From an uncultured Clostridium sp. (GTDB taxonomy: Bacteria; Bacillota; Clostridia; TANB77; CAG-508): a DNA stretch of 64,000 nucleotides. Location: NCBI GenBank assembly GCA_902406115.1, contig CABPCL010000004.1, forward strand, positions 23,995 to 87,994, in the 5' to 3' direction. The notes under the pieces were generated by a model that did not search any database, had not been told where the DNA came from, and saw only the letters and a list, made by a program, of their open reading frames with translations. A program made the translations under genes and the position numbers. This document shows positions 11,231-11,310 of this stretch, one piece after another. Numbering within the stretch: position 1 is the first letter of the stretch; every line of letters starts with the position of its first letter.

Positions 11231-11310
11231 TGTGAATAAATCACGTTTTGGAAACCACTAATAATACTTATTCACAGAGTTATCCACATTATCCACACAT
11301 ATGTGAACAA
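11231..11310. promoter_or_regulatory. DnaA-box cluster (two perfect tandem TTATCCACA boxes plus three 1-2 mismatch boxes)
   Basis: ttatccaca at 11280-11288 and 11289-11297; flanked by tgtgaataa (11231), ttattcaca (11269) and tgtgaacaa (11301); followed by an AT-rich tract. Confidence 0.6.

Follow-up and report, generated by a model that had tools for sequence, protein, structure and literature searches.

What might a dense group of DnaA-boxes do at a chromosomal site that is not the replication origin? The question is raised by the interval between polC and glyQS in a 64,000-nucleotide stretch of DNA from an uncultured Clostridium sp. (the window, a term used here for the whole stretch that was analysed), where a sequence-only reading had picked out a DnaA-box cluster. 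In B. subtilis, DnaA-box clusters (DBCs) located outside the origin stably bind DnaA and jointly restrain initiation, in a manner that depends on their dosage and position (PMC3245932, PMC4447404), and their effect is strongest near the origin (PMC3245932). The box consensus in use for Firmicutes DnaA is TTATNCACA (PMC4447404, PMC7561715).

Five DnaA-boxes between polC and glyQS

The boxes occupy 80 bp of the intergenic region (11231-11310), and the features that make up and surround the cluster are as follows.

6691..11106, plus strand: polC (PolC-type DNA polymerase III alpha), upstream neighbour; NCBIfam NF001688, 1830 bits
11105..11141, plus strand: intrinsic terminator of polC; 15-bp stem, GAAA loop, T-run 3', A-run 5'
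11231..11239, minus strand: DnaA-box E, TGTGAATAA, which is TTATTCACA on the minus strand and fits TTATNCACA
11268..11276, plus strand: DnaA-box A, TTATTCACA; 3-bp spacer GAG before box B
11280..11288, plus strand: DnaA-box B, perfect TTATCCACA
11289..11297, plus strand: DnaA-box C, perfect TTATCCACA, abutting box B
11302..11310, minus strand: DnaA-box D, TGTGAACAA, which is TTGTTCACA on the minus strand, with 2 mismatches
11407..11435, plus strand: predicted glyQS promoter, sigma-70-like; TTGACT, 17 bp, TAAAAT, upstream TG
11485..12870, plus strand: glyQS (dimeric glycine--tRNA ligase), downstream neighbour; NCBIfam NF003211, 700 bits

Two of the boxes are perfect, two carry one mismatch and one carries two mismatches. 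The sequence-only reading had placed a direct tandem of perfect TTATCCACA boxes at 11280-11297, flanked within 80 bp by three boxes with one or two mismatches in both orientations; we confirmed the coordinates and sequence of the tandem as well as the flanking boxes at 11231, 11268 and 11302. The layout of the module reads E(-), ~28 bp, A(+), 3 bp (GAG), B(+), 0 bp, C(+), 4 bp, D(-). Box D is convergent with box C across the 4-bp gap and takes the form TGTGGATAA or TGTGGATAT in most relatives, and a T9 run (11318-11326) lies on its 3' side.

The polC terminator was identified by RNA folding (-18.8 kcal/mol, z = -5.95), having been missed by a consensus terminator scan because it contains few G-C pairs. 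Since it precedes the module, the box cluster lies outside the polC transcript. The glyQS promoter had been expected to follow the boxes, and a sigma-70-like promoter is indeed predicted there, with the cluster 97-176 bp upstream of its -35 element; the same predicted promoter is kept in six of the compared loci (L001, L011, L081, L163, L166 and L167). The consensus scan returned the glyQS promoter alone and no second promoter inside the module, and on manual inspection the CATAAT-like blocks of the region (see below) showed no consistent -35/-10 spacing. Between 11050 and 11550 neither a T-box nor any other Rfam family rose above noise. A search of the polC-glyQS gap for an analogue of sda found no ORF of at least 30 aa and nothing conserved.

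In the window and its closest relatives glyQS has a short leader with no T-box (window 11141-11484). Somewhat more distant relatives retain a GGTGGAACCGCG T-box core 5' of glyQS; the loci compared on this point were L165 (11840-12230), L088, L014, L086, L006, L008, L016 and L026. Its presence in more distant relatives and its absence from the window and the closest ones point to loss of the T-box within the lineage.

The window as a whole has a G+C content of 28% and carries ordinary housekeeping genes. Its first part runs ychF, sortase, pyrH, frr, uppS, cdsA, a short rseP, polC and glyQS; two ATP-grasp genes, a spoVB-like flippase gene, DUF1294, ppdK, nrdDG and asnB come after glyQS, and der, plsY, gpsA, RNase P RNA, pta-ackA and others lie further on. 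The frr-uppS-cdsA-(dxr)-rseP-(ispG)-polC block (window 5088-11106) is present without dxr and ispG, and the RseP-like ORF of the window, at 243 aa, has no PDZ domain, while the version in L170 has 420 aa and PDZ domains. The missing dxr and ispG and the short RseP suggest a reduced genome, in which the MEP pathway may be absent. Two adjacent plus-strand ORFs of 582 and 566 aa (31703-33451 and 33435-35135) gave no Pfam match at E <= 1e-8. A tyrosine recombinase gene on the minus strand (46312-47301; Phage_integrase, N-terminal SAM-like domain) adjoins a Wzy-type gene and could be XerC/XerD-like or a mobile-element remnant.

Clustering of the boxes exceeds chance

The earlier reading had relied in part on the perfect 9-mer being expected well under once per 64 kb. 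This estimate was wrong: with both strands counted, ~0.8-0.9 copies are expected, compared with 2 observed, and at least two perfect boxes appeared in 24 of 100 shuffles of the window. Two copies alone therefore carry little weight, and it is their clustering that is decisive. The significance of clustering was assessed by 5000 permutations of the window and by a Poisson estimate. At least four boxes with no more than one mismatch fell within 80 bp in none of the 5000 shuffles, two perfect boxes lay at most 80 bp apart in only two, and the Poisson estimate puts the number of such clusters at ~2e-5 per window. Moreover, of the six TTATNCACA sites that the window contains, four are located inside 67 bp. 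In the criterion of Mackiewicz 2004, in the form in which PMC7561715 quotes it, a DBC consists of at least three near-consensus boxes with a mean spacing below 100 bp; by its sequence the array is such a cluster.

Elsewhere in the window, three one-mismatch boxes lie on the minus strand within 380 bp inside uppS (4583-4963; TTATCTACA twice and TTCTCCACA once). These are probably the product of chance, as there are 21 one-mismatch boxes across the window and ~23 in shuffles.

The arrangement is conserved where its surroundings are not

The locus was compared with 160 glyQS-anchored loci and 11 polC-anchored loci, the latter with PolC homologues of 81-99% identity (individual loci are given L numbers). 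Among the matches listed, those most closely related come from uncultured gut Clostridia MAGs, such as Candidatus Scatovivens, and the closest GlyRS has 84% identity. The five-box arrangement recurs in relatives at 81-88% PolC identity, with randomised flanks. The 30-mer TTATTCACAGAGTTATCCACATTATCCACA, which spans A-GAG-B-C, is identical in the window, L001, L006, L008, L011, L081, L086, L163, L165, L166 and L168, and is found with 1-2 changes in L014, L088, L161, L167, L169 and L170; among the 10 closest module loci it is identical in seven and has 1-2 differences in three.

Conservation of the boxes in relatives had been named as a check on the cluster, and it was borne out. When ten genomes were anchored on box B, mean pairwise identity was 0.98 for A-GAG-B-C and 0.71-0.73 for boxes D and E, against 0.33-0.47 for the surrounding intergenic DNA, which is unalignable. 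Four-fold sites of the adjacent polC have an identity of 0.60, where chance alone would give 0.50 at their base composition, so neutral positions are nearly saturated. The degenerate fifth box position and the GAG spacer are also fixed across relatives. An inverted box occupies the box E position in L001, L006, L008, L011, L081, L086, L161, L163 and L165-L168, and the 4-bp gap with inverted box D is retained in 13 of 17 module loci. In a strain of the same species (L293, PolC 99%) all five boxes are unchanged and several nearby bases differ.

We conclude with high confidence that 11231-11310 is a real DnaA-box cluster under selection. Clustering and conservation together support the earlier description of a genuine DnaA-binding cluster, with binding of DnaA at 11231-11310 predicted from sequence and conservation.

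The cluster is not a chromosome origin

The sequence-only reading had seen a possible DnaA-titrating site or DnaA-regulated promoter outside oriC, and the surroundings of the site agree with a location away from the origin. All 2-kb bins have positive GC skew except 30-32 kb (-0.04); cumulative skew rises over the 64 kb, dipping from 3.06 to 3.02 at 30-32 kb, without a reversal of direction. To either side of the cluster almost every gene is on the plus strand, and neither dnaA nor dnaN is present within the 64-kb window. With no skew switch, with co-oriented genes and with no dnaA or dnaN, the site is not the origin, and an origin anywhere within the window was rejected on the same skew and gene content.

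The same observations bear on the proposal that the cluster is an origin-type unwinding module, be it an additional oriC, the relic of one, or half of a bipartite origin. Such a role would be in keeping with the abutting boxes B and C, because a tandem DnaA-box pair is the commonest arrangement of the BUS (PMC8287927). It would also accord with the T9 run 3' of box D, and with several IMG/VR contigs in which a GC cluster and runs of CTA/TTA triplets come after an exact copy of the 18-mer TTATCCACATTATCCACA. In a BUS, however, the tandem boxes are succeeded by a GC cluster and three or more DnaA-trios (PMC8287927), a position that is held here by the conserved inverted box D. Applying as criterion at least three trios (3'-[G/A]A[T/A]-5') within ~16 bp of the boxes and then an AT-rich unwinding region, we found no triplet repeat and no conserved DnaA-trios in 17 aligned loci; the sole formal match is the T9 run of the window, which is not kept in relatives. 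A BUS/DnaA-trio reading was rejected for this reason. Thus, although the module resembles the BUS of oriC in its strong direct tandem boxes, and its 18-mer is identical to pairs that precede trio-like repeats elsewhere, it differs in having no conserved trios, GC cluster, skew switch or nearby dnaA/dnaN, and we regard an unwinding function as extremely improbable.

The 18-mer occurs in at least 120 IMG/VR viral contigs (L171-L290), where a handful would be expected by chance, and is followed by an origin-like GC cluster and CTA/TTA runs in L176, L184, L200, L229, L243, L252, L267 and L281. In many viral copies a convergent TGTGGATAA stands 3-6 bp further on, which is the B-C-D logic of the module. 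One phage family carries TTATACACAgagTTATCCACATTATCCACA, an A-GAG-B-C array (L218 5240-6480; also L199, L223, L226, L230, L240, L247, L261, L262 and L269). This array sits in a 1.2-kb non-coding gap between divergent genes, with Rad52-like recombinase and TnpB genes nearby. It could serve the phage as a DnaA-dependent origin or as a decoy for DnaA.

Non-box blocks accompany the boxes

In addition to the boxes, relatives share several short blocks at set distances from them, which appear in the window as follows.

11165..11171, plus strand: ACATAAA, a degenerate copy of the ACATAAT block that relatives have ~116 bp before the tandem boxes
11202..11214, plus strand: GGTTTTCATAAAA, a conserved block ~20 bp before box E, seen in anchored and MAFFT alignments
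11252-11258: AACCC, co-conserved in the spacer between boxes E and A
11339..11352, plus strand: GTAACATAATGTCG, a conserved block at +59..+72

The upstream ACATAAT lies at -116/-117 in L001, L011, L161, L163, L165, L166 and L167, and a third copy is found just 3' of the polC stop in L161 and L165. A GTTTTCATAAAA block is co-conserved at about -70 from the tandem boxes, and the block at 11202-11214 has a pairwise identity of 0.66 versus 0.33-0.47 in the flanks. Within GTAACATAATGTCG are an ACATAAT at +62, a 9-bp palindrome (ACAT-A-ATGT) and a TGTCGnA resembling the 0A-box of Spo0A; this block is not fully constrained, with two changes in the same-species strain. The non-box blocks keep the same offsets in L001, L011, L081, L161, L163 and L165-L168, and several relatives have a sixth box at about +120.

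Could the conserved block then encode a small RNA or leader, or serve as operator for another regulator whose sites resemble DnaA-boxes? The fixed distances of the non-box blocks (ACATAAT at -116 and +62, GTTTTCATAAAA, AACCC) would allow for a further binder besides DnaA, and the TGTCGnA of the +62 block recalls a Spo0A box. Nevertheless, two of the boxes are perfect and two more fit the Firmicutes DnaA consensus, the non-box blocks are far less conserved than the boxes, and the gap between the genes holds neither an Rfam family nor an ORF of at least 30 aa. We therefore consider both versions of this explanation very unlikely. RNAalifold was run on both strands, and the pairs it predicted arise from the inverted boxes only, with 0 compensatory changes among 23 and 17 pairs; a structured RNA was rejected for either strand on account of this lack of covariation. 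Inspection of the non-box motifs gave no convincing match to Rex, CcpA or LexA-type operators. By analogy with IHF and Fis at datA and DARS2 (PMC5742627), the blocks could mark an accessory factor.

The module is retained with different neighbouring genes

A more serious alternative is that DnaA acts here as a transcription factor, sensing replication status and activating or repressing the downstream promoter, in this case that of a glyQS without a T-box leader. There is precedent in B. subtilis, where several DBCs also regulate promoters: sda is activated, and ywlC, yydA and dnaA are repressed (PMC3245932, PMC4447404). The cluster is located upstream of the predicted glyQS promoter, and for a glyQS that has no T-box another regulatory input is conceivable. 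Among the 160 glyQS loci, 40 perfect boxes lie at most 1.75 kb upstream of glyQS and none further upstream, and only 5 occur between the glyQS start and a point 4.5 kb beyond it. Distant Clostridia have differently built groups of boxes just 5' of glyQS (L043; L094, L095 and L098) or single perfect boxes at the T-box promoter (L016 and L026). The boxes in distant lineages hint at a link between DnaA and glyQS, but the enrichment on the glyQS side is partly a sampling effect, as anchoring introduces bias and many loci are homologous copies of an ancestral polC-module-glyQS arrangement.

We examined the association of the module with the genes on either side. It is present in 15 of 17 loci with polC upstream (carriers are the window, L001, L002, L011, L017, L081, L088, L161, L162, L163 and L165-L170), and its absence from L003 and L164 indicates that it is dispensable in some lineages. 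On the downstream side the gene changes: glyQS comes next in the window, L011, L163, L166 and L167; pfk and then argS in L161 and L162; an HTH gene, followed by tyrS and a T-box glyQS, in L165; ykuD in L169 and L170; and a small membrane ORF in L081 and L168. In L001 the module is followed by the 3' end of a convergent 231-aa gene, with no promoter for ~800 bp. Conversely, the module is found 5' of glyQS, or of a HAD-like gene and then glyQS, without polC upstream in L006, L008, L014, L086 and L032; the upstream gene is a divergent 493-aa gene in L006 and L008, a galE-like gene in L014 and DUF1294 in L086, and L032, from a GC-richer organism, has the variant TGTGGATAAcTTATCCACCTTATCCACAcagTTATCCACG.

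The small membrane ORF, which separates module and glyQS, encodes 84 aa in L081 (2178-2432) and 69 aa in L168 (9499-9708) and is absent from the window; in L081 it has its own copy of the promoter, TTGACT...TGATAAAAT. A small DUF1294 gene stands directly between polC and the module in several relatives, among the loci L002, L003, L017, L088, L169 and L170. In the window this gene is at 16771-17046, and its displacement 5.7 kb downstream points to local rearrangement around the module.

These comparisons bear on promoter control in several ways. A promoter follows the module in nearly all loci, and in every locus except L001 a co-oriented gene has its own promoter within ~60-250 bp, which is compatible with promoter control. 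The gene served by that promoter varies, however (glyQS, pfk, ykuD, HTH or HAD), and the downstream genes form no coherent regulon. The distance from module to promoter is itself not conserved and fits poorly with a fixed promoter geometry, the module persists in L001 despite the inserted convergent gene, and presence of a T-box does not track the module, both being found in L088, L014, L086 and L165. Because the module stays 3' of polC when pfk, ykuD or an HTH gene comes next, the comparative data lean towards a function independent of glyQS, and control of the glyQS promoter seems to us possible but rather unlikely as the main role. If the module does no more than tune that promoter, it is an ordinary regulatory site.

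Retained whatever gene follows, and also without polC, the module behaves as an autonomous cis-element and not as the operator of one promoter. The simplest history for these sequences would be an ancestral arrangement polC-(DUF1294)-module-glyQS, from which the module survived on either side after rearrangement.

A proposed role in the control of DnaA

Our preferred reading, to which we give a probability of roughly 0.55, is that the module is an extra-origin DnaA-box cluster on which a cooperative oligomer of DnaA binds and which regulates DnaA's availability or activity, and is not primarily a glyQS promoter element. Boxes A, B and C are arranged head-to-tail with start-to-start distances of 12 and 9 bp. 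These add up to 21 bp, a mean of 10.5 bp per box, which places A and C exactly two helical turns apart. We suggest that the three boxes nucleate a cooperative DnaA oligomer, as same-direction boxes do at oriC, and that this oligomer would be bounded by the inverted boxes, D being convergent across 4 bp and E lying 28 bp upstream. Its most probable function would then be to hold or remodel DnaA, by titration or by a change of nucleotide state, much as has been suggested for the DBCs of B. subtilis and demonstrated for datA and DARS in E. coli, thereby exerting feedback on oriC initiation. If the glyQS promoter, 100-175 bp downstream, is affected at all, we would regard this as secondary.

The closest known systems are the DBCs of B. 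subtilis (yydA-yycS, ywcI-vpr, yqeG-sda, ywlC-ywlB, gcp-ydiF and thdF-jag). Like them, the module is an intergenic array of multiple TTATNCACA boxes, at or near consensus, outside oriC and next to a promoter, and stable cooperative binding of DnaA would be expected of it too. It differs in its flanking genes and in belonging to an uncultured clostridial lineage. Moreover, it has only 5-6 boxes in a rigid geometry that is deeply conserved, whereas the B. subtilis DBCs have not been found to share any structural feature (PMC3245932). Across the sequences compared, what distinguishes the module among DBCs is this unusually rigid, lineage-wide geometry. Our literature search yielded neither a description of a DBC linked to polC nor a DnaA ChIP-seq study in any Clostridium.

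Position may be a further point of difference. In model Firmicutes the frr-uppS-cdsA-rseP-polC block is far from the origin, which would make for a poor fit to an origin-proximal titration role. Proximity to the origin matters for the effect of the B. subtilis DBCs, but the module may not be close to its origin.

The arrangement can also be set beside the E. coli loci that act on the DnaA cycle, namely DARS, where ADP-DnaA is made to release its ADP, and datA, in which a box cluster with an IHF-binding site stimulates the hydrolysis of ATP bound to DnaA. In the DARS1 core, boxes I and II are opposite with a 5-bp space, box II has the full consensus, and boxes II and III run in the same direction (PMC6868365); in E. 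coli MG1655 this core, between bioD and uvrB, reads TTATCCACT attcc TGTGGATAA cca TGTGTATTA. Read on the reverse strand, the module is D-> 4 bp <-C <-B 3 bp <-A, compared with I-> 5 bp <-II 3 bp <-III in DARS1. Common to the module and DARS1/DARS2 are a convergent pair, a 3-bp gap to a same-direction box, a perfect box, and a non-coding, neighbour-independent setting. Unlike DARS, the module contains one more box, which abuts its neighbour, and a fifth at a distance of 28 bp; outside the boxes the two share no homology, and IHF and Fis sites are not expected in Firmicutes. Judged from these sequences, the resemblance to DARS1 is one of logic and not of homology, and it is silent on activity. 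The module, as proposed, would also share with datA the property of being a cluster of high-affinity boxes outside oriC that acts on DnaA and not on a gene, and its non-box blocks might stand in for the IHF-binding site of datA. However, datA is close to oriC and needs IHF between its boxes 2 and 3 (PMC5742627), features without a known counterpart in the module.

We offer as a long shot the more specific idea that the module is a Firmicute counterpart of these DnaA-cycle loci, either DARS-like or datA-like, in which the fixed geometry would force a DnaA-DnaA contact that changes nucleotide state and the non-box blocks would bind an accessory factor, whether DNA-bending or sporulation-linked (Spo0A-like). 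Against this stands the rapid unaided nucleotide exchange of B. subtilis DnaA, which lowers the need, and hence the prior, for a DARS-type element in Firmicutes. If the idea were correct, elements of this kind would gain their first architecturally defined member outside Proteobacteria.

Looking ahead, the restraint of DnaA in Firmicutes without Hda, SeqA, datA and DARS is only partly understood, and in B. subtilis no structural rule is known to separate the DBCs that regulate initiation from the others. An 80-bp, near-invariant module offers a compact substrate on which to test the arrangement of boxes and not just their number. Tandem-plus-convergent box arrays recur in phage contigs, and the module itself is a conserved non-coding element of gut Clostridia about which little is known.
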